From an uncultured Mycoplasmatota bacterium (GTDB taxonomy: Bacteria; Bacillota_I; Bacilli_A; RF39; UBA660): a DNA stretch of 64,000 nucleotides. The notes beneath the pieces were generated by a model. It saw only the letters and a program-made list of their open reading frames with translations. It searched no databases and was not told the DNA's origin. Shown piece by piece: positions 12,841 to 35,526 of the stretch. Location: positions 39,842-103,841 of the forward strand of contig URPE01000001.1 of NCBI GenBank assembly GCA_900549625.1, in the 5' to 3' direction. A program made the position numbers and the translations under genes. Every line of letters starts with the position of its first letter. Within the stretch, counting starts at the first letter, position 1.

Positions 12841-13848
12841 ATGGAAGATGATAAAATACTAGAGGCCGAAGAGCAAGAAATTGATAGCAGTTTACAAAAT
12901 ATTAGACCTCAAAGCTTAGATGAATATGTTGGCCAAAAAGAAATAACTGATAATTTAAGAGTATTTATAAAAGCAAGTAAAATTCGTAATGAATCACTTG
13001 ATCATGTGCTTTTATATGGCCCACCAGGTTTAGGTAAAACAACGCTTGCTCATATAATAGCTAACGAACTTGGGGTTGGTATTAAAACTGCATCTGGCCC
13101 ATCAATCGAAAAAAGTGGCGATTTAGCAGCTATTTTATCGACTCTTGAACCAGGTGATGTACTCTTTATTGATGAAATACACAGGATGCCTAAATTTATT
13201 GAAGAAATACTTTATCCTGCCATGGAAGACTTTGAAATGGATTTAGTTTTAAATAATGACGGCAAAAGTAGAAATATAAAAATTGATTTACCCCCATTTA
13301 CTTTAGTTGGGGCGACAACAAGAGCTGGTGATATTTCCTCACCTTTAAGAGACCGATTTGGTATCATTTCTAAATTACAATACTATACAGAAGATGAATT
13401 ATTACAGATAGTTACAAGAACAAGTAAAGTTCTTAATATGCCAATTGATGAAGACGCTGCGAGATTAATTGCTAAGCGTTGTCGTAAAACACCAAGAATT
13501 GCCAATCGTTTATTTAAACGTGTTCGTGATTTTGCTTTAGTAAGTGGGGCAGATAAAATAGAATATGATATGGCTAACGAATCTTTAAAACGTCTAAAAG
13601 TAGATGAATATGGTCTTGATTCCATTGATATTGAATACTTAAAAAGTTTAATTACTAAGTTTAACGGCGGACCTGTTGGCGTTGAAACTATCGCTACTAG
13701 TATAGGGGAAGAAGTATCCACAATAGAGGATGTTGTAGAACCATTCTTATTACAAGAAGGCTTTATTAAACGAACACCTAGAGGACGTATGGCAGAAGAA
13801 AAAGCGTATGACCATTTAAAAATTGATCATATGACTTCACTATTTTAA
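12841..13848 (+). CDS. ruvB: Holliday junction DNA helicase RuvB
   Basis: [11 protein letters not shown], Walker [10 protein letters not shown], Walker B LFIDEIHR, sensor [10 protein letters not shown]. Full length at 335 aa. Confidence 0.95.
13531..13848 (+). repeat. direct repeat copy 1 (3' end of intact ruvB)
   Basis: Matches 17304-17621 at a constant offset of 3773 with no indels. The first 275 bp are identical. There are six substitutions, all in the last 43 bp. Confidence 0.9.
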
Positions 13849-14397
13849 AAGGTATACCTATATAAAAAATAAACTAATTATTGATGAAGGGTCAAAAGAG
13901 AGTGGTAAAACACTCATTAACGGATGACTTAAGAAAAAATGTTGCTAGTGCTAATTTATACCGCTTATCCGGACAGAAAGATAAAAGCTTGATAGGCTTA
14001 AAACATAGTGAGAAAATGTATAAATCACTATTGAAATATCTCCATTCTATGGAAGATGTACCCATGGATTTAATATTTAAAAGATCCAAATTTATATACT
14101 GAACGTTTAAAAAGAAATCATTATCAAAACATTAGTTCAATTAACAGCGTTAATCAAGAGAATATATATTTGCAAATTAGTGAAAAATTAAAAGAAAACA
14201 CTAAATTTAATATTAATGTTATTGCTATGGATGATTTTGATGAGGCTTACAAAGAAGTAAGAAAAAATCTTGATATTTAATGAAAAAGCAGAAAATAAAG
14301 AATATTGTCATTTATATTAGAGTTAGCATGTAAAGAAAAAATGTAATAAAATATTTGCAAACACAATATTTAAATAATAAAAGTTTTAGGTGATGTT

Positions 14398-15294
14398 ATG
14401 TTAAGACAATTTAAGGGAATAAAATGGATAAATAATATGCCACATTTCATTTTATATAATTATGAAAATAATAGTATAGAATATAAAAAAGTGCAAGGGA
14501 TTATAGATATAAAAAAAGGAAAGCAAAGAAAATGCAATGGATATTACGATTTGGTTACACATAGATACATTGCCTGTCCAAATTTTAATAGTAGTGAGTC
14601 AGATAATGTTAAACAATGTGAAACATGTTTAAATATTACCGGATTTAATGAATGTCTTGGATGTGATGGTAAATATTGCAGAACTGTCAATAGTATTGCA
14701 AAAAAGTTTTGCACTCAAAAACATGTTGTGTATATTGCTCTATTCGGAAATAATAAATTCAAAGTTGGAACAGCTGCCGAATATAGAAAATACACAAGAA
14801 TATTAGAACAAGGTGCTATAGCATCAATGTTTATTGCTGAAACACTAGATGGTAAACAAGCAAGACTTATAGAACATTCAATATCAAAATTAGGATATGT
14901 GCTTCAGGTAAATTCGGCATTTAAAATGAAGAACTTAATAATTGATATGGATCGGACTGAAATTGAGAATATTTTAAAAGAGCATTACAATAATATTATG
15001 AATGGTATTCCTGATGTATTAAAGAAATATCTTATTTCTCCTGAAATTAATTATTGTGAAAAAATGAATAGGATGAATAAAAGGATTTTTGTGCCAAAAA
15101 AAATGCAGTTATCTCTTCTTGATAATAAAGTTCAAAATACATATAATATTAATTATTTTTTGAATTATGATAGTATATGTGGTAGAATAGTCAACGTTAT
15201 TGGGACTTTTTTAGTAATAAAATCAAATAATGATTTTTTAGTTTACGATACTAAAGAATTAGACGGGTATATTGTAAACATTAAATTAGGTTAG
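14398..15294 (+). CDS. Cys-rich (zinc-ribbon-like) DUF2797-like protein, function unknown
   Basis: Cys cluster (C..C, CETC, CLGC, C, C) followed by HVVYIALFGNNKFKVGTAAEYRKYTRILEQGA. I recall this as the DUF2797-type core (VYLA..KVG..R..QGA), which also resembles GIY-YIG/T5orf172-like cores. SD AGGTG upstream. Confidence 0.45.
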   Translation: MLRQFKGIKWINNMPHFILYNYENNSIEYKKVQGIIDIKKGKQRKCNGYYDLVTHRYIACPNFNSSESDNVKQCETCLNITGFNECLGCDGKYCRTVNSIAKKFCTQKHVVYIALFGNNKFKVGTAAEYRKYTRILEQGAIASMFIAETLDGKQARLIEHSISKLGYVLQVNSAFKMKNLIIDMDRTEIENILKEHYNNIMNGIPDVLKKYLISPEINYCEKMNRMNKRIFVPKKMQLSLLDNKVQNTYNINYFLNYDSICGRIVNVIGTFLVIKSNNDFLVYDTKELDGYIVNIKLG

Positions 15295-15305
15295 GGAGTG
15301 TTTAA

Positions 15306-16343
15306 ATGTTTGATTATCAAGGAATAGATTATAGCAGTATTATTGATTTAGGATGTACTAAGGCAACTTTTGAAAACCATTCGATGAGTCAATCACTTGA
15401 AAGATATATAGAAATGAAATTACAAGATATAATTTTTAGTGATTCGATATATAGGATACATGTAGTTGGTAATTATGATAGGAGCATAGGTGTTTCGACT
15501 AAAGAAAAAAATGATAAAATTTTCAATTATAAGAGACCAACAGTCTTTGTAGATAATGGTGTTGCGACAATTAATTGCTATCCAGGTATAGATTATGTAT
15601 ATCATTATGCAAGTTTAGTAAAAACATATTTGTCTCTTCTTGGAATAGAAAAAATAATTACAGTACAGTTTCCTACGGTTTCAAAAATTGAGAGTCAGTT
15701 AATTAAATCTAATATAAATGAAGTGCCAAAATGTAAAACAGTAATATTGGGTTATGTGCAAGGCTTTGAGTACTTATCCAGTACAGAAAATTGGCTTGGG
15801 ACTGGAGATTTTCTATGGAAATTAATAACTGATGATAAAATATTAGTTGGCTGTAAGCATAGTTATTGGGGGGATATTTCAGGCTATATTGTTGCTGCCT
15901 TAGCACGAAAAGGCGTTGAAAGAGTTATATATGTTGGAAAACTTGGAACATTAAATGAAAAATATGCACCGAATGAGACAATTGCCACTGGAAACAAAAG
16001 CATATTTATTGATGGTAGTTTAGTTGAATGGAATAATGTATTTGCTGATTTTAATTATGATACCATTAAGAATGGGGTTCATTTTACGCTGCCTAGTATA
16101 ATTCAAGAAACAACAGATTGGGTTCTGCAAAACAAAAATGAAATTGCATTTGTTGATCCAGAAATTGGCCATATGGCTAAATCTGCACTGCAAAACGGAA
16201 TTAGTTATTCCTATTTGCATATTATATCAGACAACTTATCAAAGAAATTCTCTGAAGACTTATCTAATGAAAGAAAAGAAGATGTGCTAATTAAAAGGAA
16301 AAAGTTAATTAAAACAATAGGAGATTGTTTAATGGATATATAA
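15306..16343 (+). CDS. two-domain protein: unknown ~140-aa N-domain plus PNP_UDP_1 (nucleoside phosphorylase/nucleosidase) fold
   Basis: C-terminal half has WGDISGYIVAALARKGVERVIYVGKLGTL and VDPEIGHMAKSALQNGISYSYLHIISDNL. These parallel the G-rich segment and the xEMEaxA...R.ISD segment of MtnN/AMP-nucleosidase-type enzymes. Starts 11 nt after the previous gene, behind GGGAG. Confidence 0.55.
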   Translation: MFDYQGIDYSSIIDLGCTKATFENHSMSQSLERYIEMKLQDIIFSDSIYRIHVVGNYDRSIGVSTKEKNDKIFNYKRPTVFVDNGVATINCYPGIDYVYHYASLVKTYLSLLGIEKIITVQFPTVSKIESQLIKSNINEVPKCKTVILGYVQGFEYLSSTENWLGTGDFLWKLITDDKILVGCKHSYWGDISGYIVAALARKGVERVIYVGKLGTLNEKYAPNETIATGNKSIFIDGSLVEWNNVFADFNYDTIKNGVHFTLPSIIQETTDWVLQNKNEIAFVDPEIGHMAKSALQNGISYSYLHIISDNLSKKFSEDLSNERKEDVLIKRKKLIKTIGDCLMDI

Positions 16344-16345
16344 AA

Positions 16346-16374
16346 ACTGTGTTACTAAACACAGTGATTTTTTT
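16346..16374. terminator. bidirectional hairpin between convergent genes
   Basis: ACTGTGT-tacta-ACACAGT with a T-run on the plus strand and an A-run upstream. Overlaps the last codons of the CYTH gene. Confidence 0.5.
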
Positions 16375-16924
16375 CCATTACAAGTTGTGGGTATCCTGCA
16401 AATATTTGTTTTCCGACATTAATTCCTAACTCTTCTATAGTATCCATAATATATTTCATACTTTCATCTTCGTTATCATATAAATTTGTCTTGAATTCTA
16501 ATTCTATGAAGTCTCCTAAGTTTTCTATAGAATCAATTGATATAATAATATTATTATATTCAAATGAATTTCTTGTTTTTTCAACAACTATTATTTGTTG
16601 AAAATCTAAGGCAATTAACATTTCAAGCATTCCATTATAGTCATCAATTCCAACTTCAATTTCTTTGCAGGAAATTTTATTATTGCCATCACGATTACCC
16701 CAATTTTTGTAATTAATAGTTTTTTCTTTCTTTGTATCTCTTACTCTAAGCCATTCTGAAATAGGTCTTTTTTCGAGGAAATTTTCATGTGCTGGTGTAT
16801 AATATATATCTTTTTGATAGTTATTTTCTTCAACTTTTTTACCTAGTTTTTTTAATTTTACCAATGTATCTTCCTTGTTAATCAAGGGGAATTTTGCTTC
16901 AATTTCTATTCTTTTTCTTTCCAT
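16355..16924 (-). CDS. CYTH-domain protein (class IV adenylate cyclase CyaB / triphosphate tunnel metalloenzyme family)
   Basis: Starts MERKRIEIEAKFPL (ExExK signature) behind GGAGG. Has later acidic strands (LGDFIELEF) and is about 189 aa, typical of CyaB-like proteins. Confidence 0.7.
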   Translation of the reverse strand: MERKRIEIEAKFPLINKEDTLVKLKKLGKKVEENNYQKDIYYTPAHENFLEKRPISEWLRVRDTKKEKTINYKNWGNRDGNNKISCKEIEVGIDDYNGMLEMLIALDFQQIIVVEKTRNSFEYNNIIISIDSIENLGDFIELEFKTNLYDNEDESMKYIMDTIEELGINVGKQIFAGYPQLVMEKNHCV

Positions 16925-16972
16925 ATCATAACCTCCATATAAATTATATAATATTTCACTTTTTAATGTCAA

Positions 16973-17303
16973 TCAACTATCAGCAACAATCAGGTCAAAT
17001 TTTTTTGCTTGTTCGTAATGTGAAAAGTCAGTCATAGGATGATAGTTATCATCAAAATTATATCTAATAGCCCATTTTTCTAAGGGTTTACAATTATTTA
17101 AAATAAAGTCATATAAATATTTGGATGGCTCTAAATGAACAAAATAGGCAAATTCTTTGAAAGATAATTTAAAAGTCAAAATGATTTTTATATAATAATT
17201 AAGATTAGGATAAAGGCGATTTAAATCTTTACTTGGAATATCGTTATTATGAAAGGTGTTTTGTTTTATTGGCGTTTCTTCTTTCTTAATAGCTATAATA
17301 GAA
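16973..17303 (-). pseudogene. 5'-truncated ORF abutting the ruvB' repeat (unknown family)
   Basis: The open frame ..IPSKDLNRLYPNLNYY..KPLEKWAIRYNFDDNYHPMTDFSHYEQAKKFDLIVADS has no plausible start codon or SD before it enters the ruvB-antisense sequence. The 173-aa ORF in the track is a chimera with ruvB antisense. Confidence 0.45.
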
Positions 17304-17621
17304 TTTGCTTTAGTAAGTGGGGCAGATAAAATAGAATATGATATGGCTAACGAATCTTTAAAACGTCTAAAAGTAGATGAATATGGTCTTGATTCCATTG
17401 ATATTGAATACTTAAAAAGTTTAATTACTAAGTTTAACGGCGGACCTGTTGGCGTTGAAACTATCGCTACTAGTATAGGGGAAGAAGTATCCACAATAGA
17501 GGATGTTGTAGAACCATTCTTATTACAAGAAGGCTTTATTAAACGAACACCTAGAGGACGTATGGCAGAAGAAAAAGCATATGACCATTTAAAAATCGAT
17601 CATATGACCTCTTTGTTTTAA
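17304..17621 (+). pseudogene. orphan ruvB 3' fragment (direct repeat copy 2)
   Basis: Encodes the last 105 aa of RuvB ([13 protein letters not shown]...HMTSLF), identical in protein to the intact gene but with six synonymous differences near the stop. Lacks the ATPase domains. Confidence 0.9.
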
Positions 17622-17661: not shown

Positions 17662-18555
17662 ATGAAAAACGAGAATGTAGAAATGAAAATGTGGAGTAGT
17701 CACCCACAAAAGATCGATAACTGGGATACAAATATAGACTATGTTATGTTCATTGACGAAAATGGTAATTCCGGAAAAATTAATGATATATTTAAAAAAA
17801 GACTGTATAACGAAAAAATTTCTGTAGACGAAAAATATTTTACTATTACAGGCGTTATATTTGAAAAAAGTAATTATTCAAAAATGAGAAATGATATTAG
17901 GAAACTTAAGGAAAAATATTGGCAACGTGGTTATTACTATGATTCGAAGCACAAGGATACAAGATATGTTTGCTTGCATTCTAGGGAGATCAGAAACCAT
18001 ACAGGTGCTTTTAATGATAAGGTGATAGATTATGACAAGTTTATAAATGAATTAAGTAACACTTTAGAAAAAATAGAATGTAAAATTATATCAATAACTA
18101 TAAATCTTGAAAATTATATTCTTAAGGATGAGCAAATTCCAGTTTATGATAAGGCTTTCGATTTATTATTAGAGAGGTATGTTTATGCTACAGATAGTCA
18201 TAAAAAAGGTATTATAATGTTTGAGTCAAGAGGAAAAAATGAAGATAAAGATCTTCTTAAGCATATTTCAAATATTATGTTTGCAAAAGGAACAGAGCAT
18301 ATTAAAAATTCAGAATTGCAAGAAAAAATTAAAGGAATTTATTTTAACCCTAAATGGTATGGCGGATATTCTTCAACTTATGCTGGTCTTGAAATCGCTG
18401 ATTTATTTTCTTATCCTATTCATTCCACAATTAAGTTGCGTAAGAAACACCCATCCTTTATTACTATTGAAAAAAAGATAGATTGTTATCCGCATTATGA
18501 AAATAAGGGTATTAAAATTTATCCAAAAGAAAAGGACGATATACATCATCCTTAA
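17662..18555 (+). CDS. DUF3800-family protein
   Basis: N-terminal FIDENGNSG (DUF3800-type DExG motif) and C-terminal GLEIADLFSYPI. SD GGAG upstream. Confidence 0.55.
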   Translation: MKNENVEMKMWSSHPQKIDNWDTNIDYVMFIDENGNSGKINDIFKKRLYNEKISVDEKYFTITGVIFEKSNYSKMRNDIRKLKEKYWQRGYYYDSKHKDTRYVCLHSREIRNHTGAFNDKVIDYDKFINELSNTLEKIECKIISITINLENYILKDEQIPVYDKAFDLLLERYVYATDSHKKGIIMFESRGKNEDKDLLKHISNIMFAKGTEHIKNSELQEKIKGIYFNPKWYGGYSSTYAGLEIADLFSYPIHSTIKLRKKHPSFITIEKKIDCYPHYENKGIKIYPKEKDDIHHP

Positions 18556-18750
18556 CCGTACGAAATACTTCGTACCCCGAAGCGTTCTGCTTCCATGACA
18601 AAATAATAACATAGAAAATACTATTTTGTCAATTATAGTATATACAAAAAAAATAAATATATGCAAATTTTAGATTGTATGCTTTTTCTAAATTTCTTGT
18701 ATTATTCATACAATATGATATAATAGTCAGTACTAGAAAAGAGGTGCATT

Positions 18751-19335
18751 ATGGCTTTAATGGAAAAAAACAAATGCTATAAAATGAATTTATGCATTAT
18801 ACCAGATGGTGAATTGGTAGTTCAAGGTGATAAATTTAATAAATATTATAAATCAGTTAATGGTACCTTCGTTCCAAATGAAAAGTTTATTGTGCAAGAT
18901 AGTATTATTGTTAAAAAGGAAAGGTTTAATAATTATGTTACAGTAGTAGGAACTGATATTGAAATACCTTGCGTTATTTTAGAAATAGAAAATGTCTTAA
19001 GTAGAAACGAATATGATAGTAATGCTAATATTGTTAAATATATATCTTTGGTTGAAGGTAGAACTGATAAAATGTTAGTAGCCTTTGCAATTAATAAGAT
19101 AGGAGAAGTTCCAATCATGGAACATGAAGAAAGTTTTATGCTAAAAGAAGCAACTGAAGAAGAGATTAATAGCCAACTAGAAAATAGCCTTTACTATAAT
19201 TTTGCTGATGATTTACAAGCCTTAGTTAATAGTATTAGAACTAAAGAAATAAGTGATTTAAGAACATATAAAGAAAACTTAAAAAACGAAAAAAAGAGTA
19301 GAATGACAAGAGTAATTAAAAAAATCTTGCCTTAA
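18751..19335 (+). CDS. hypothetical protein (194 aa, no recognised motif)
   Basis: ORF with SD AAGAGGTG 5 nt upstream of the ATG. Soluble, with a K/E-rich C-terminus. Confidence 0.5.
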   Translation: MALMEKNKCYKMNLCIIPDGELVVQGDKFNKYYKSVNGTFVPNEKFIVQDSIIVKKERFNNYVTVVGTDIEIPCVILEIENVLSRNEYDSNANIVKYISLVEGRTDKMLVAFAINKIGEVPIMEHEESFMLKEATEEEINSQLENSLYYNFADDLQALVNSIRTKEISDLRTYKENLKNEKKSRMTRVIKKILP

Positions 19336-28172: not shown

Positions 28173-31100
28173 ATGGCTTACAAATTAAAAAAATGTGGAG
28201 ATTATAGAACTCGTAGAAGTTTCTCCAAAAGTAAAAATACGATGGAACTACAGGATTTACTAGAAATCCAAAAGAAAAGTTACCAAGAGTTTTTAGAGAC
28301 TGGTATTCGTGAGGTATTTGATGAATTATTTCCAGTTGAAAGTTTTACAGGTAATGTTACTGTTGATTTTGGTGATTATTCTTTTGACAAGCCTAGATAT
28401 TCTGTAAAAGAAGCAAAAGAAAGAATGGTTAACTACGCTGCACCACTTAAGGTTGAAGCACGTGTATTTATTCATGAAACTGGAGAGGTCAAAGAACAAG
28501 AAATATTTCTAGGGGATATGCCTTTAATGACTGAGGCTGGTACATTTATTATAAATGGTGCAGAACGTGTTATTATTTCTCAATTAGTACGTAGTCCAAG
28601 TGTTTACTTTAAACGTGAGGTAGATAAAAATGGACGTCGTGTTATAAGTGGTGAGATGATTCCAAATCGTGGTACATGGCTTGAATTTGAAACTGATGCA
28701 AGAGATATTGTTTATGTTCGTATTGACAGAACAAGAAAAGTCCCTGTTACGACTTTCCTAAGAGCCCTTGGGTTATCTAGTAATGAAGAAATTGTTTCTT
28801 TATTTGGTGAGAACGATTATCTTTTAAATACATTTGAAAAAGATAATACTAAAAATACAGATGAAGCATTAATTGAAATATTTGAAAAATTGCGTCCAGG
28901 TGAACCAGCAACACTTGATTCTGCTAAAAACCAATTAATTATTCGTTTCTTCGATCATTTCCGTTATGACTTAGCTAAAGTTGGTCGTTACAAATTTAAT
29001 CGTAAATTAAATGTTTGTGAAAGACTAGTAGGTTGTACATTAGCAGAAGATATTAAAGATAGTGAAGGTAATGTAGTAGCGCCTGCAAATACTTTAGTTA
29101 CTAAAGAAGTTTTAGATAATATTAAACCTGCTATTGCTAGTGGATTTGGTGTTAAAAAAGTTTTGATTCATGAAGAGTTAGACCAATATAATGAAGTTCA
29201 AGAAATTAAAGTATTTGATAAAACTAATCCTGATAAAGTAGTACCTATTATTGGTGTTCTTGAAACAACGACTGAAAAAAGACTTACTATTCCAGATATT
29301 TATGCTTCAATTAACTATTACTTAGACCTACAATTAGGTATTGGTAATACTGATGAAATAGATAACTTAGGAAACCGTCGTGTTCGTCAAGTAGGGGAAT
29401 TAATTCAAAAACAATTCCAAGTAGGTATGAGCCGTATGGAAAGAGTTATTAGAGAAAGAATGACTACACAAGAAACAGAAGATATTACACCAAAATCTTT
29501 AATTAACATTCGTCCTGTTACTGCTGTTTTAAAAGAATTCTTTGGTAGTTCGCAATTATCGAAGTTCATGGATCAAATTAACCCAATAGCTGAACTAACT
29601 GATAAAAGACGTTTATCTTCTTTAGGACCTGGTGGTCTATCAAGAGACCGTGCTGGTATGGACGTTCGTGACGTCAATGCAAGCCACTACGGAAGACTTT
29701 GTCCAGTAGAAAGTCCAGAAGGTCAAAATATCGGTCTTATTACTTCACTTTCTGGTTATGCTAAAGTAAATGAATATGGCTTTATTATGACTCCTTACCG
29801 TCGTGTAGTTGCGGGTCAAGTTCAAATGGATGATGTTCATTACTTAACTGCTGATGAAGAAACCGATTATTATATTTCTGAGGCTAATATCAAACTAGAT
29901 GATGACAATCATATTATTGATGATGAGGTTATCGTGCGTTATAACGGCGACAACTTAATGGTTTCTAAAGATAAAGTTAACTTTGTTGACGTATCGCCAA
30001 GCCAAGTTGTATCAATAACAACAAGTTGTATTCCATTCTTAAACTACGATGACGTTCACAGAACACTTATGGGTTCAAATATGCAACGTCAAGCCGTACC
30101 TCTTTTACAAACTGAGGCACCTATCGTTGGTACTGGTGTTGAATGCGTAGCAGCTAAATATTCTGGTAGTACTATTCTTGCTAAAGCAGATGGTATCGTA
30201 GAATATGCTGATTCTAAAAAAATTATTGTTAAAACAGTTGGTGGTAAAGATACATATTATCTTGCTACATTTGAGGCTAACAACGCTGGAGCTTGTACAA
30301 ATCATATACCTTTAGTACATGCAGGTGATAAAGTAGCTAAAGACCAAGTTATTGCCGATGGCCCAAGTACCGATCATGGTGAACTTGCTCTTGGTAAAAA
30401 CATGACTGTTGCCTTCATGACTTATAATGGTTATAACTATGAAGATGCAGTAATATTAAATGAAAGACTAGTTAAAGATGATGCTTATACATCACTACAT
30501 ATTGCTATGTATGAAATTGAATGTCGTGATACTAAACTTGGACCTGAAGAAATAACTCGTGATATTCCAAATGTTGGTGAAGAAGCTCGTAAAAACCTAG
30601 ATTCATCTGGTATTGTAAGAATTGGTACCGAAGTTAAAGAAGGCGATATCCTAGTTGGTAAAGTTACACCAAAAGGTGTTCAAGAACTTACTAGTGAAGA
30701 AAAATTATTACATGCTATTTTCGGTGAAAAAACACGTGAAGTAAGAGATACATCATTAAAAGTAGAACATGGTGCTGCTGGTATCGTTCATGATGTTAAA
30801 GTCTATACTAAAGAAAATAGTGATGAATTACCTGCTGGTGTTTTCAAAATAATTCGTGTTTATATTATTCAAAAACGTAAAATCCAAGTTGGTGACAAAA
30901 TGAGTGGTCGTCATGGTAACAAAGGTGTTATTTCCCTAATCTTACCAGAAGAAGATATGCCATACTTACCAGATGGTCGTCCAGTTGATATCATGTTAAA
31001 CCCATTAGGTGTTCCATCTCGTATGAACATTGGTCAAATATTAGAAGTTCACTTAGGAATGGCTGGTAAAAAATTAGGCGTTCATTATGCAACTCCAGTA

Positions 31101-31817
31101 TTTGATGGTGCTAATATCGATGACATTCATGAAGAAATGGCTGAAGCTGGTATGAGTGAAGATGGAAAAGTAACTCTTATCAATGGTCGTACTGGTGAAC
31201 CTTTCGAAAACCGTGTTAACGTTGGTGTTATGTACATGGTAAAACTACATCACATGGTTGATGATAAATTACATGCTCGTGCTACTGGTCCTTACAGTTT
31301 AGTTACGCAACAACCTTTAGGTGGTAAAGCACAATTTGGTGGTCAACGTTTCGGTGAGATGGAAGTTTGGGCATTATATGCTTATGGTGCTGCTCATGTC
31401 TTACAAGAAATACTTACTATAAAATCTGATGACGTTATTGGTCGTGTTAAAGTATATGAAGCTTTAGTAAAAGGTAAAACTGTTAACCAAGCTGGTGTTC
31501 CTGAATCATTTAGAGTATTAATTAAAGAATTCCAAGCCTTAGGTCTAAATGTTCAAATAATTAACAATAAAGATGAAGTCTTAGATTTAAAAGAAATAGA
31601 AAAAGAAGAAGAAAAAGAAGATATTATTAAAATTGATGAAATAGATGTAACTCCTGAGATAAAAGAAACTGAGCCAGAAGAATTAAATGATGACTTAGAA
31701 GATGATTATTCTGATGGCGATGAAGAAGATGAGTTTGACTCTGATTCTTTAGATGATTTAGAATATCCTGGAGACACATTAGATGATGATTCTACTGATA
31801 GTTTAGGAGGTAAGTAA
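28173..31817 (+). CDS. rpoB: DNA-directed RNA polymerase subunit beta
   Basis: 1214 aa with conserved blocks ([53 protein letters not shown]). Acidic D/E-rich C-terminal tail. Confidence 0.98.
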
Positions 31818-31818
31818 T

Positions 31819-34800
31819 ATGATCGAAGTTAATAATTTTAAAGGAATTAAAGTAAGTCTTGCTAGTCCTGAACAAATTCGTTCTTGGTCTTACGGTGAGG
31901 TTAAAAAACCAGAAACCATCAACTATCGTACATTAAAACCTGAAAGAGATGGCTTATTCTGTGAAAAAATCTTTGGACCTACTAAAGACTATGAATGTTC
32001 TTGTGGAAAATACAAAAGATTACGTTATAAAAATGTTGTGTGTGATCGTTGTGGAGTAGAAGTTACAAAGTCTAAAGTACGTCGTGAACGTATGGGACAT
32101 ATTGAACTTGCTTCTCCTTGTTCTCACATCTGGTTCTTTAAAGGCGTACCATCAAAAATGGGTCTTGTTCTTGATATGAGTCCAAGAGACCTAGAAGAGG
32201 TTTTATACTTTGTAAGTTATGTTGTTTTAGATCCTGGTAGTGCACCTCTTGCTAAAAAACAAACTTTATCTGATAAAGAGTATCATGCATACTATGAAAA
32301 ATATGGTAATGCTTTCAAAGTTGGTATGGGTGCTGAAGCTATCCAAAAACTTCTAAAAGAAGTTGATATTGATAAAGAAGTAGAGGATTTAAGAGCTGAA
32401 CTTGAAGGCGCTACTGGTCAAAAACGTATTCGTTTAGTTAAAAGATTAGATTGTTTAGTATCATTCCAAGAAAGTGGCAATCGTCCTGAATGGATGATCT
32501 TAGAAGCTCTTCCTGTTATTCCACCAGATTTACGACCAATGATTCAACTTGATGGTGGTAGATTTGCTACAAGTGATTTAAATGACTTATATCGTCGTAT
32601 TATAAATCGTAATAATCGTTTAAAAAAATTATTAGAATTAGGGGCTCCAACTATCATTGTTCAAAATGAAAAACGTATGCTTCAAGAAGCTGTTGATAGT
32701 CTTCTTGATAACGGCCGAAGAGGAAGAAGCGTATCTGGAGCAGGCAATAGACCACTTAAGAGTTTATCTAGTATGTTAAAAGGTAAACAAGGTCGTTTCC
32801 GTCAAAACTTACTTGGTAAACGTGTTGACTATTCTGGTCGTAGTGTTATCGTTGTTGGACCAAACCTTAAAATGTATCAATGTGGTATTCCAAAAGATAT
32901 GGCTCTAGAACTATTTAAACCACATGTAATTCATGGTTTAGTAGAACGAGGCCTTGCTCATAATATTAAAGGTGCTAAAAAACTTATTGATACTAAAAAT
33001 GATTGCGTATGGGATGTAGTAGAAGATGTTATTACAGAGCATCCTGTTATGTTAAACCGTGCACCAACTCTACATAGACTAGGTATCCAAGCCTTTGAAC
33101 CTAAATTAGTTGGTGGTAAAGCTATTCGTTTACATCCACTTGTTTGTACTGGATTTAATGCCGACTTCGATGGTGACCAAATGGCTGTTCACGTTCCACT
33201 TTCAGAAGAAGCTCAAGCTGAAGCAAGAATACTAATGCTTGGTGCACAAAACATACTAAATCCAAAAGATGGAAAACCAATTGTTACACCATCACAAGAT
33301 ATGGTCCTTGGTAACTGCTATATTACTCAAGAAAAAGCTGGTGAACCACATGAAGGTAAGGTTTATAAAGACCCTAATGAGGTTCAAATGGCATATCAAA
33401 GAAAAGAGATTACTCTTCATACTCGTATTGCCTTACCAGTAAAATCTTTCAAACATAAATTATTTATGGAAAGCCATATGGATGATTACTTAGTAACTAC
33501 TTGTGGTAAAATTATTTTCAATGAAATATTACCAGATAGTTATCCATATGTTAATGAAGCTACAAAAGAAAACATTGAAGGTATGACACCAGATAAATAT
33601 TTCTTACCAATGGGTACTAATATCCCTGAAGCTATCAAAGCAATGCCTTTGGGAAAACCATTTGTTAAGAAAGACTTAAGTAAGATTATTGCTCAAGTAT
33701 TTAAACGTTATCATACAACTGAAACTAGTGTTTTCCTTGATAAATTAAAAGACTTAGGTTTCAAATATTCAACTATTGCCGGTATTACCGTATCAGCATC
33801 TGATATAGTAACTTCTAAAACAAAAGCCCAAGTTCTAGAAGAGAGTCAAGCCCTAGTTGAAAAAGTTAATAAACAATTTAAACGTGGTATGATTACTGAT
33901 GAAGAACGTTATAACACAGTTATTGATATCTGGAATAAAGCAAATGATAAAATCAAAGCTGAATTAAAAGAGTTAGCCGAAGGTGATTATGATAATCCAT
34001 TGTTTATGATGATGAACTCTGGAGCTCGTGGATCATTATCAAACTTCTCACAACTTGCTGGTATGCGTGGACTTATGGCTAAGCCAGATGGCTCTACTAT
34101 TGAAATTCCCGTTACCTCAAACTTTTCAGAAGGTCTTACAGTGTCTGAATTCTTCTTATCAAGTCATGGTTCTAGAAAAGGTAACGTTGATACCGCTCTT
34201 CGTACAGCAGACTCAGGTTACTTAACACGTCGTCTTGTTGAAGTTGTTCAAGATATCATCGTTAAAGAACATGATTGTGGTTCTATTCATGGTGTTGTTG
34301 TAAAAGACTTAATTAATGATAAAGATGGTAGTGTTATTGAATCACTTGCTGAACGAATTTTAGGTCGTTATACTGCTCAAAAAATTGTTAATCCAGAAAC
34401 TAAAGAAGTTATTGCTGAAAAAGGCGTATTAATCACTGAAAATATGGTTAAAAAAATAACTGAAGCTGGTATTAAAGCAGTTGAAATTAGAAGTGTCTTG
34501 ACATGTAAGGCAGAAAATGGTGTATGTCAAAAATGTTATGGTCGTAACCTTGCAACTGGAAATCTTGTTGAAACAGGTGAAGCAGTTGGTATTATGGCTG
34601 CCCAATCAATTGGTGAACCAGGTACACAGCTTACAATGCGTACATTCCACTCAGGTGGTGTAGCAGGAGATGACATTACTCAAGGTCTTCCACGTGTTGA
34701 AGAATTATTTGAAGCTCGTAATCCAAAAGGTAAAGCAACGATTTCTGAGGTTAGTGGTAAAGTTGCATCTATTAAAGAAGAAAATGGCAAATATCGTATT

Positions 34801-35526
34801 GTTGTTGAAACAGAAGCTGAAGCTCGTGAACATGTTACTAATTACAACATGAAACTACGTGTTGCAGTTGGTGATATGGTAAATGCTGGTGACAAGTTAA
34901 CTGAAGGTGTTATTTCACCAAAAGAATTACTTGCTGTAACTGACCCAATCACGGCTCAAGAATACATCTTAAAAGAAATTCAAATGGTTTACAAATTACA
35001 AGGTGTTGACGTTAATGATAAACACATTGAAATTATTGTTAAACGTATGATTAATAAAGTACGTATTGTTGATGCTGGTGATACTGACTTAGTAGAAGGT
35101 TTAAGCGTATCATTAAAAGAATTTACAGACGCTAATAAACCAGTTATCTTAGCCGGTAAAGTTCCTGCTAAAGGTAGACCAATTATGCTTGGTATTACTA
35201 AGAGTTCATTACAAACTGATTCATTCTTATCAGCAGCCTCATTCCAAGAGACTACTAGAGTTCTTACTGATGCCTCTATTAAAGGTTCAGTTGACTACTT
35301 AAGAGGATTAAAAGAAAATGTTATCATTGGTAAATTAATACCTGCTGGTACTGGTGCTCGTGAATATAGTGACATTGAACTTGAATTAAAAAAACAATTC
35401 ATGGATGATGATGCTAGTGAGGTTTTAGAAGAAACTTTAATGGACACAACTGGTGATGATGATAGTGTTGAAGGTATTAATGAAGCACTTGATGATTTAG
35501 AAAATGAAGAAAATACGGAAGAATAA
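31819..35526 (+). CDS. rpoC: DNA-directed RNA polymerase subunit beta'
   Basis: Zn finger CSCGKY..CDRCG and catalytic [12 protein letters not shown]. 1235 aa. Confidence 0.98.

Follow-up and report, generated by a model that had tools for sequence, protein, structure and literature searches.

The window analysed here, that is the whole stretch of 64,000 nucleotides (nt) of chromosomal DNA from an uncultured gut bacterium, is low in GC (~27%) and contains a mobile cassette of 2,608 bp (14373-16980), in which three genes are packed together with their control regions. Gene A (14398-15294, plus strand) encodes a DUF2797 protein of 298 amino acids (aa), and gene B (15306-16343, plus strand), which starts 11 nt past the stop codon of gene A, encodes a protein of 345 aa with a family-specific N-terminal domain of ~140 aa and a catalytic domain of the purine nucleoside phosphorylase (PNP)/methylthioadenosine nucleosidase (MTAN) fold. 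Gene C (16355-16924, minus strand) is convergent to B and encodes a CYTH/CyaB-like triphosphate tunnel enzyme of 189 aa. A bidirectional hairpin terminator with an 8-bp stem and T-runs on both strands (16346-16365) lies between the stop codons of B and C, and a promoter-like site of gene C, TTGACA-18-TATAAT, which matches at 12/12 positions, is found within the conserved cassette (16943-16972, minus strand). The preliminary description of this locus, made from the sequence alone, located the three genes correctly and was accurate in every checkable detail; its three domain assignments hold as well, for A by Pfam, for B by the structural model, Foldseek and hhalign, and for C by Pfam, TIGR00318 and the EIEAKF motif of the ExExK type.

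The cassette had been described as part of a horizontally acquired insert, and this is confirmed by the structure of its borders. Intact ruvB (12841-13848, plus strand) ends at the left boundary of the insert, and its 3' end forms a 320-bp direct repeat with copies at 13528-13848 and 17301-17621 (both plus strand), which are 99% identical and differ only across the last ~30 nt; the second copy is a displaced ruvB fragment with the WHD_RuvB domain only and makes the right boundary. Because the ruvB 3' end is duplicated on both sides, the 3.77-kb stretch between the copies is an insertion, and its geometry fits the Campbell-type single-crossover integration of a circular DNA with a ruvB 3' fragment. 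No integrase or transposase was found in the 3.77-kb island, and the base composition of the window gives no sign of acquisition at the insert; the evidence for acquisition is the ruvB duplication together with the presence of the cassette elsewhere with different flanks. In several metagenomes the island alone makes up a separate contig of 3.3-3.6 kb, as is expected because assemblies break at the repeat. Transposon-like terminal inverted repeats around the cassette were considered and rejected as AT-rich noise only.

The arrangement of A followed by B with convergent C recurs with the same gene order in five other Bacillota genomes (L008, L009, L010, L011, and L020), where the proteins are 50-87% identical to those of the window and no flanking gene is held in common; the preliminary description would have been refuted by a lack of co-occurrence elsewhere, and the three genes do co-occur. 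The L008 and L009 copies match the window with 86% nt identity over exactly the 2,608-bp span, and L008, L009, and L010 are mutually 95-98% identical, yet stand in different contexts. One further locus (L006) has B and C without A. The flanks of the other loci are mostly housekeeping genes (ClpB-like, LtaS, EssC-like, amidase, and peptidase), and the L008 copy lies near a DUF6414 gene and a gene for a RelA/SpoT-domain protein that matches the PADLOC candidate PDC-S33. Proteins A, B, and C gave no PADLOC match even at E <= 1 and their immediate neighbours no significant one, on which ground membership in Detocs, in the cyclic oligonucleotide-based antiphage signalling systems (CBASS) or in any other PADLOC system was rejected; as the preliminary description had supposed, the gene combination corresponds to no named system, either in PADLOC or in the literature searched. 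The L010 locus is a contig of a metagenome-assembled genome labelled Actinomycetes despite a GC content of 27%. Its apparent A-B fusion (793-2559) is an in-frame deletion that joins residues 1-~255 of the DUF2797 protein to residues 37-345 of B; it is not evidence for a natural fusion, and the joined gene has probably arisen by decay of a copy or as an artefact of assembly or binning.

For protein B the Pfam search gave no meaningful match, PNP_UDP_1 (PF01048) being absent and one sub-threshold match being at chance level, and no match was found in NCBIfam, PADLOC or the PDB sequences. Among its relatives PF01048 is approached by sub-threshold C-terminal matches of 16-24 bits (cutoff 25.1), and one protein (P0316) reaches 30.5 bits. 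The AlphaFold (AF2) model built from 47 sequences was of high quality by its predicted local distance difference test (pLDDT 95) and predicted template modelling score (pTM 0.93), and its Foldseek comparison with the PDB gave a best E of 2.5e-10, probability 1.0 and target TM of 0.62-0.66. All top 50 PDB matches belong to the NP-I family, namely, MTAN, PNP, uridine phosphorylase, MTAP, and futalosine hydrolase, and B as modelled is a divergent member of the three-layer alpha/beta PNP/MTAN (NP-I) fold.

The residues of B were mapped with hhalign by aligning its profile to the E. coli sequences of Mtn, DeoD, and Amn (E 0.04-0.7). Two segments that had been quoted beforehand as hallmarks of the PNP fold proved to align to the ME(174) and SD(197) motifs of MTAN: VDPEIGHMA to V171-E-M-E174, with E286 at the place of E174, and HIISD to R-A-I-S196-D197, with S308-D309 at the place of S196-D197. 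In MTAN E174 binds ribose, while D197 protonates the purine N7. The VIYVGKLG segment of B aligns to the RVGSCG phosphate loop of DeoD and has a G-x-x-G loop at the same place. Thus B shares with MtnN and the hexameric PNP DeoD the fold, the ribose-binding Glu motif, the Ser-Asp motif at purine N7, and the G-x-x-G loop, but it differs from them in having no significant sequence match, in the extra conserved N-terminal domain, in Tyr209 and Lys212 at the phosphate site, and in being rare and accessory instead of housekeeping; its gene partners, described below, suggest nucleotide substrates, in contrast to the nucleosides used by MtnN and DeoD.

In an alignment of 64 B proteins W188, K212, G214, W242, H259, E268, D284, and E286 are invariant (64/64), and K38, K71, N74, R77, D96, Y97, H100, E322, R323, and R331 are invariant except for alignment gaps. 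The N-terminal ~140 residues, which had no family match in Pfam or NCBIfam, are rich in basic residues and more conserved than the catalytic half: K38, K71, and R77 are present in 61-63 of the 64 proteins, the remainder being gaps, R59 in 48, and K68 in 51.

The search of 5.8 billion proteins returned 174 homologues of B, none of them named, and the profile search of 1.84 billion representatives of 50% identity clusters gave a family size of 604 clusters at E <= 1e-3. With the patterns used, B was found in 69 of 185,579 species representatives (one genome per species), and these loci span Bacillota, Cyanobacteriota, Actinomycetota, Patescibacteria, Planctomycetota, and others. B is a rare and patchily distributed family of its own that carries no annotation. 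The possibility that it is a housekeeping MTAN/PNP orthologue, which the preliminary description had raised against itself for methylthioadenosine/S-adenosylhomocysteine or purine nucleosidases, was rejected because of the lack of a significant sequence match to PNP families or PDB chains, the sparse distribution, and the recent insert. Phage origin was rejected too, since A, B, the actinomycete homologues of both, and the kinase described below had no match in 50,697 phage genomes; B had no match in IMG/VR either.

The partners of B were counted with hidden Markov models built from the hits, within 4 kb of B, in 70 loci (69 and the window). The most frequent is DUF2797 (37/70 loci), which occurs in two gene orders and three operon types, followed by a dTMP-kinase-like P-loop protein (34/70), NUDIX fused or adjacent to B (24/70), QueE (19/70), QueD (18/70), FolE (17/70), HIT and a methyltransferase (15/70 each), an APH-type kinase (11/70), and CYTH (7/70); pyruvate-kinase-like or PEP-synthase-like genes are further recurrent partners. 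CYTH and NUDIX never stand together beside B in these loci. Fusions of B comprise NUDIX-B, found in genome-reduced Patescibacteria, B-NUDIX, aldo-keto-reductase-B, B-ankyrin, and one degenerate B-CYTH. In the last of these, the metagenomic protein P0275 (571 aa), the catalytic Glu and Asp of B are replaced (FADTDTG, HVITNN) and inspection of the CYTH start region revealed no ExExK-like motif; it may be a non-catalytic derivative. Relatives of B also occur on conjugative elements and plasmids. Common ancestry was considered for the genes upstream of B in Nostoc (266 aa), in a conjugative element (313 aa), and in Streptococcus (a nucleotidyltransferase), and was rejected: pairwise BLAST found nothing, and they are unrelated partners.

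Several of these loci form operons of their own type. In two Streptococcus loci (L002 1-8811 of Streptococcus orisasini and L018 of Streptococcus sp.) CYTH is followed by a Pol-beta-type nucleotidyltransferase, B, a pyruvate-kinase-like, and a dTMP-kinase-like gene, and upstream of both lie an Rgg regulator, an Rce1-like protein, an ABC exporter, and a PqqD-like protein; this cluster looks like a quorum-regulated one for an exported nucleotide-containing product. In Nocardiopsis spp. (L061-L076) a third operon type combines a PPDK_N/PEP-synthase-like gene, a gene for a 338-aa protein of unknown function, the kinase, B, DUF2797, a HIT-like, and an APH-type kinase gene; here B has Thr-Asp for Ser-Asp, and deazaguanine genes are absent. 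The IncF plasmids of Klebsiella (L080, K. variicola NZ_CP103421; L079, K. oxytoca pKO_JKo3_1) carry a B relative of 28-30% identity, whose operon also encodes a DMT transporter, NUDIX, and a DegT aminotransferase. The label "RHS repeat-associated core domain-containing protein" on the Klebsiella B would suggest a polymorphic toxin, but this was rejected, as the labelled gene is a truncated stand-alone copy beside insertion sequence elements and looks misannotated.

A further operon type belongs to actinomycetes and joins B to the synthesis of 7-carboxy-7-deazaguanine (CDG). Its order is QueD (PTPS), QueE (radical SAM), FolE (GTP cyclohydrolase I), an unannotated DpdA3-like protein of 272-279 aa, B, the dTMP-kinase-like protein, DUF2797, a class I S-adenosylmethionine-dependent methyltransferase, and NUDIX; the genes are co-directional, their stop and start codons often overlap, one or two NUDIX genes are present, and a divergent HTH-TPR regulator lies alongside. 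It was found in Spirillospora, Nonomuraea, Actinomadura, Frankia, Amycolatopsis, and many Streptomyces. The 272-279-aa protein (L048 5120-5956; L077, L078, and L081) matches in tblastn the DpdA of Flavobacterium phage vB_FspM_immuto (E 7e-15 over 97% of its length) and CGPG_00065 of Cellulophaga phage phiST (E 7e-10), and Campylobacter phages match as well. CGPG_00065 is the founding DpdA3, and the phages with DpdA3 replace all of their G, and DpdA3 alone could not be reconstituted (PMC10516641). By these alignments the 272-279-aa protein is a homologue, of cellular origin, of the DNA-guanine transglycosylases in the DpdA3 subfamily. The operon kinase was compared with the "thymidylate kinase" next to DpdA3 in phage immuto, and their identity was rejected for want of any similarity. 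DpdA3 has to our knowledge been reported so far from phages only.

The linkage was confirmed reciprocally by a search started from DUF2797, which found relatives in 348 species-level genomes. Among the 80 best of these, 79 new loci were obtained, in which B adjoins DUF2797 in 61 and the full deazaguanine operon is present in 58. One copy of the operon (L081/L088) stands beside a portal gene on NZ_CP107821, the "plasmid" unnamed2 of Streptomyces sp. NBC_00536, a circular molecule of 132 kb. Its genes include those for a portal and a major capsid protein, for ParA/ParB, and for a DEAD/DEAH helicase-family protein of 5,247 aa, and with this content it is a phage-plasmid. The described Dpd and phage FolE-QueD-QueE-DpdA3 modules, with which the actinomycete operon shares its FolE, QueD, QueE, and DpdA3 homologue, contain neither a PNP-fold nor a DUF2797 gene, while the window cassette is free of deazaguanine genes.

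The operon type is reflected in residue 309 of B, the equivalent of D197 in MTAN and D204 in E. coli PNP. Among the 64 B proteins it is Asp in 38 and Asn in 25, with one gap. Asn309 is found in all 18 alignable B proteins from operons with QueE and the DpdA3-like gene, and Asp309 in every B of the Bacillota-cassette, NUDIX-linked, Streptococcus, and Nocardiopsis type. In trimeric PNP Asn at this position gives specificity for 6-oxopurines (guanine-type), and its exchange for Asp admits adenine nucleosides. The clean split of Asp and Asn by operon speaks for a contact of residue 309 with the base and for B handling the purine of its operon, which would be of the guanine/7-deazaguanine type in the CDG operons and of the adenine type, or a generic purine, in the window cassette.

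Protein A matches DUF2797 of Pfam (PF10977) with E 9.5e-14 and 52.2 bits (cutoff 25 bits) over residues 80-293 and contains the CETC/CLGC cysteine cluster and the HVVYIALFGNNKFKVGTAAEYRKYTRILEQGA segment. In 70 homologues C46, C60, C74, C77, Y112, K122, G124, R130, R134, and E159 are invariant, and the four Cys residues are a putative Zn-type site; a second Cys cluster (CxxC...C) is present in the Bacillota branch only. The model (pLDDT 93, pTM 0.88) consists of an N-terminal beta domain, a Cys-rich helical segment, a beta-beta-alpha-beta-alpha core, and a C-terminal beta domain. A GIY-YIG-like core had been proposed for this protein. The order of secondary structure in the core (E109-116, E120-127, H128-138, E142-149, H152-163) agrees with it, and Y112, K122-V-G124, R130/R134, and E159 occupy positions resembling the GIY-YIG/T5orf172 motifs; a GIY-YIG core has Tyr in beta1, x-I/V-G in beta2, Arg in alpha1, and a Glu further on. 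What it lacks is a PDB match at E < 0.1, and in BFVD Foldseek found only weak matches (E 0.007-1, probability <= 0.6), several of which are GIY-YIG, T5orf172, MUG113, and homing endonucleases. The core of the model resembles GIY-YIG, but the assignment is unproven and not statistically supported. No function has been assigned to DUF2797 in the literature searched, where four papers mention it, and nothing marks it as the sensor for which it had been taken. A DUF2797 sub-branch in Arthrobacter, Paenarthrobacter, and Rhodococcus (L120, L131, L134, L155, and L159-L171) has neither B nor a deazaguanine gene nearby; therefore DUF2797 is not confined to systems containing B.

The start codon of gene C is the ATG at 16924, which a GGAGG ribosome-binding site precedes, whereas the open reading frame as listed has TTG and extends to 16972; the product begins with MERKRIEIEAKF and has EIEAKF at residues 6-11. 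The match to Pfam CYTH (PF01928) has E 8.9e-26 and that to NCBIfam TIGR00318 (cyaB) 96.6 bits (cutoff 57.95), in agreement with the CyaB-like CYTH protein announced for this gene. Its nearest solved relative is the triphosphatase-type Sulfolobus triphosphate tunnel metalloenzyme SaTTM (Saci_0718; E 4e-11), ahead of the Yersinia class IV cyclase YpAC-IV (E 3e-6); archaeal hypothetical proteins are among the closest as well. With the CyaB class IV cyclases and SaTTM it has in common CYTH and TIGR00318 matches above cutoff and the ExExK motif, by which a cyclase and a triphosphatase activity are not separable. We know of no CYTH protein described as a partner of a PNP-fold enzyme.

Taken together, what was observed of the fold, of residue conservation, of gene linkage and mobility, and of the Asp/Asn split is the basis on which the cassette is read as a small nucleotide-processing pathway centred on B, with a rough probability of 45%. 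B would cleave or exchange the purine on a 5'-phosphorylated (deoxy)ribonucleotide, its catalytic domain using E286 for ribose binding and D309 at purine N7, and its basic N-terminal domain might hold the phosphate tail. That B acts at the level of nucleotides is suggested because all of its recurrent partners (NUDIX, CYTH, NMP-kinase-like, pyruvate-kinase/PEP-synthase-like, and HIT proteins) work on nucleotide phosphate tails. CYTH would set the phosphorylation state of the nucleotide as an NTP/triphosphate hydrolase or, less likely, as a cyclase, and NUDIX would fill the same slot in other lineages; the two look like alternatives for one step because neither is seen where the other stands beside B, and each is also known in fusion with B. 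In this step either an NTP could be converted to the form used by B or the triphosphate product of B could be cleared. DUF2797, which B has as an obligate partner in many lineages, probably has a phosphodiester or a nucleic acid as its substrate; this is the least certain step. The presence of NMP/NDP kinases beside B in half of the loci suggests that the product is often a non-canonical NMP that needs to be phosphorylated again, and from this pairing base exchange or synthesis looks likelier than simple destruction, in those lineages at the least.

In actinomycetes B of the Asn type and DUF2797 appear to be wired to CDG synthesis, the DpdA3-like transglycosylase, the NMP-kinase-like protein, a methyltransferase, and NUDIX, and the B family as a whole may serve the production or turnover of non-canonical purine nucleotides. 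The Asp-type cassette of the window would then be a minimal mobile form, with a purine nucleotide of the adenine type or a generic one as its substrate. We infer here the substrate class, the direction of the reaction (hydrolysis or base exchange), and the roles of CYTH and DUF2797. For the window cassette a nucleotide purine N-glycosidase/transglycosylase, a triphosphate enzyme, and a DUF2797 partner are predicted, and no more specific function is proposed because kinases and base-synthesis genes are absent from it. A bolder form of the proposal holds that B and DUF2797 constitute a previously unrecognised purine-exchange (transglycosylation) pathway at the nucleotide level, which feeds 7-deazaguanine chemistry; it is possible but on the whole unlikely. 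There CYTH or NUDIX would deliver an NMP, B would swap its purine for a non-canonical base (CDG in the Asn-type operons of actinomycetes and of the phage-plasmid), and kinases would phosphorylate the product again, so that it could be built into DNA or serve as an antiviral or antibiotic nucleotide. If this were true, the pathway would supply the "missing enzymes" of DpdA3-type G replacement, with the window cassette as its minimal mobile version.

Several facts weigh against a nucleotide-processing pathway in the window. Kinase, NUDIX, and base-synthesis genes are absent from the window and its cassette, as are FolE, QueD, QueE, and DpdA from the 64 kb, and the function is transferred from homologues which are only 23-38% identical. 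The residue mapping by hhalign, at best E 0.04, is not significant alone and is credible only through the strong fold match; the phosphate-site Arg87 and Ser90 of PNP are replaced in B by Tyr209 and Lys212, and phosphorolysis, hydrolysis, and transfer are not separable from these residues. The role of DUF2797 in the cassette is a guess, and the least certain step, because no significant structural relative of it was found, the whole model having returned no usable relative by Foldseek. CYTH is convergent to B and has its own promoter-like site, and the two are not strictly co-regulated. Finally, a small cassette that transfers horizontally alone resembles a defence or toxin module as well.

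The last point leads to the reading put forward in the preliminary description, a sensor and nucleosidase defence system. In this abortive-infection or nucleotide-depletion scheme B would be an ATP/dATP or AMP nucleosidase upon infection, CYTH would remove or generate triphosphate species, and DUF2797 would sense infection or be a nuclease effector. Cap17 of type III CBASS and DtcC of Detocs are ATP nucleosidase effectors with PNP domains (bioRxiv 10.1101/2023.01.24.525353) and prove that such domains can have this role; like B they combine the PNP fold with an Asp active site, as in adenine-specific enzymes, and reside in accessory DNA, and the bond that they cleave is the N-glycosidic one in a triphosphorylated nucleotide. 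The small, mobile cassette has a patchy distribution, its L008 copy lies near the DUF6414 and RelA/SpoT-domain (PDC-S33) genes, a DUF3800 gene is found just downstream in the window, and B relatives travel on conjugative elements and plasmids. If this scheme were true, B would represent a nucleosidase effector lineage invisible to Pfam-based censuses. However, the PNP domains of Cap17 and DtcC are detectable by PF01048 and form their own clade, which was defined from PF01048 hits, and B, missed by PF01048, stands outside it. In those effectors a sensor or receiver domain is either fused to the enzyme or controls it, whereas B is fused to NUDIX, CYTH, aldo-keto reductase, or ankyrin; no sensor, SAVED, receiver, or STAND domain was found, the PADLOC searches were negative for all three proteins, and the flanks are mostly housekeeping. 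The kinases beside B in 34 of the 70 loci, a difference from Cap17 and DtcC, point to nucleotide building and not to destruction, and the NUDIX-B fusions in Patescibacteria speak against defence as well. The genome context fits nucleotide modification or processing better than ATP depletion, and the defence scheme is considered unlikely, so that this part of the preliminary description was not upheld.

Other explanations look away from defence by ATP loss. The cassette might be the restriction or accessory half of a 7-deazaguanine DNA modification, with DUF2797 as a GIY-YIG-type nuclease that tells modified from unmodified DNA, B and the phosphate-tail enzymes controlling the pool of (d)GTP or guanine, and the window holding an orphan. 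The position of B and DUF2797 between the DpdA3-like gene and the methyltransferase in at least 58 actinomycete genomes and in the Streptomyces phage-plasmid agrees with this, as do the complete G replacement by DpdA3 phages with an enzyme that was not reconstituted alone (PMC10516641) and the GIY-YIG likeness of the DUF2797 core in secondary-structure order, motif positions, and BFVD matches. It is made improbable by the absence of FolE, QueD, QueE, and DpdA from the window, by the phage-genome searches negative for A and B and the IMG/VR search negative for B, by the GIY-YIG assignment having no statistical support, and by the Nocardiopsis-type operon, where A and B are paired only with small-molecule phosphotransfer enzymes (HIT, APH, PPDK-like). 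Proteins of the TGT family can moreover act on substrates besides DNA.

About as doubtful is a role in making, or in resisting, a natural product of nucleoside or nucleotide type, e.g., a cadeguomycin-type CDG-riboside in actinomycetes or an exported peptidyl-nucleotide in Streptococcus, for which B would form or cleave the N-glycosidic bond. Here the Streptococcus cluster of CYTH, nucleotidyltransferase, B, and the two kinase-like genes is suggestive, standing as it does downstream of genes for an Rgg regulator, a protease of the immunity type that is Rce1-like, an ABC exporter, and a PqqD-like protein, and so is the distant B of Klebsiella plasmids with its transporter, NUDIX, and aminotransferase; the tubercidin pathway likewise uses CDG and a Nudix hydrolase (PMC6112128), and many 7-deazapurine clusters of Streptomyces are uncharacterised. 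But genes for an exporter, a regulator, or tailoring are missing from the window cassette, no product is known, and the DpdA3-like gene of the actinomycete operon speaks for nucleic-acid modification. Ordinary purine salvage, in which B would be an AMP/NMP nucleosidase like Amn, supplied with NMP by CYTH or NUDIX and accessory only by accident of transfer, is very improbable. Its fold and catalytic residues are indeed those of salvage enzymes, and NUDIX-B fusions stand alone in the salvage-dependent Patescibacteria. Amn also has a PNP-fold domain with an extra N-terminal domain, a 5'-phosphorylated purine nucleotide as substrate, and an Asp-type site, its DME and VSD motifs aligning to B. Nevertheless, B has no detectable sequence relation to Amn (hhalign E 0.68), the N-terminal domains are not demonstrably related, and Amn is a stand-alone regulator of the adenylate pool without a DUF2797 or CYTH partner; the B family is extremely sparse, the insertion is recent, with near-identical copies in different contexts, and the tight linkage to DUF2797 and CDG synthesis genes would be left unexplained by salvage.

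The superfamilies of the B and C folds are known, while the B family, the trio, and the nine-gene operon are undescribed in the literature searched, where no description of the deazaguanine or Nocardiopsis operons or of the trio and no paper combining CYTH, a nucleosidase, and defence were found. The 2026 survey of 7-deazapurine clusters has no mention of B or DUF2797 genes, and no literature on DpdA3 after 2023 was found. The data presented here give a first structural and genomic handle on two families without assigned function, DUF2797 and the PNP-fold family of ~600 clusters. The nine-gene actinomycete operon, one copy of which is located on a Streptomyces phage-plasmid, brings enzymes of the nucleotide level together with 7-deazaguanine base synthesis and a DpdA3-like gene, and the module of B and DUF2797 is a candidate for the missing chemistry of DpdA3-dependent complete guanine replacement. 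Asp or Asn at residue 309 represents a testable specificity switch.

The rest of the island consists of two segments absent from the other cassette copies. The left one (13849-14372) is AT-rich and ends where the homology to L008 and L009 starts, at 14373; it includes a doubtful open reading frame of 73 aa (13881-14102) without a family match. The right one (16981-17300) carries the C-terminal remnant of a minus-strand gene (16973-17290, ~105 aa), whose reading frame continues into the displaced ruvB fragment, antisense to it, and which is not present in other copies. Between this fragment and a Peptidase_M29 gene, at 17662-19335, lie the genes for the DUF3800 protein (297 aa) and for a 194-aa protein without a significant family match, a pair that may be a second accessory insertion. 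Elsewhere the window includes ruvA and tyrS in addition to ruvB, and two large genes at 28173-35526, which from their size and position we take to be rpoB and rpoC.

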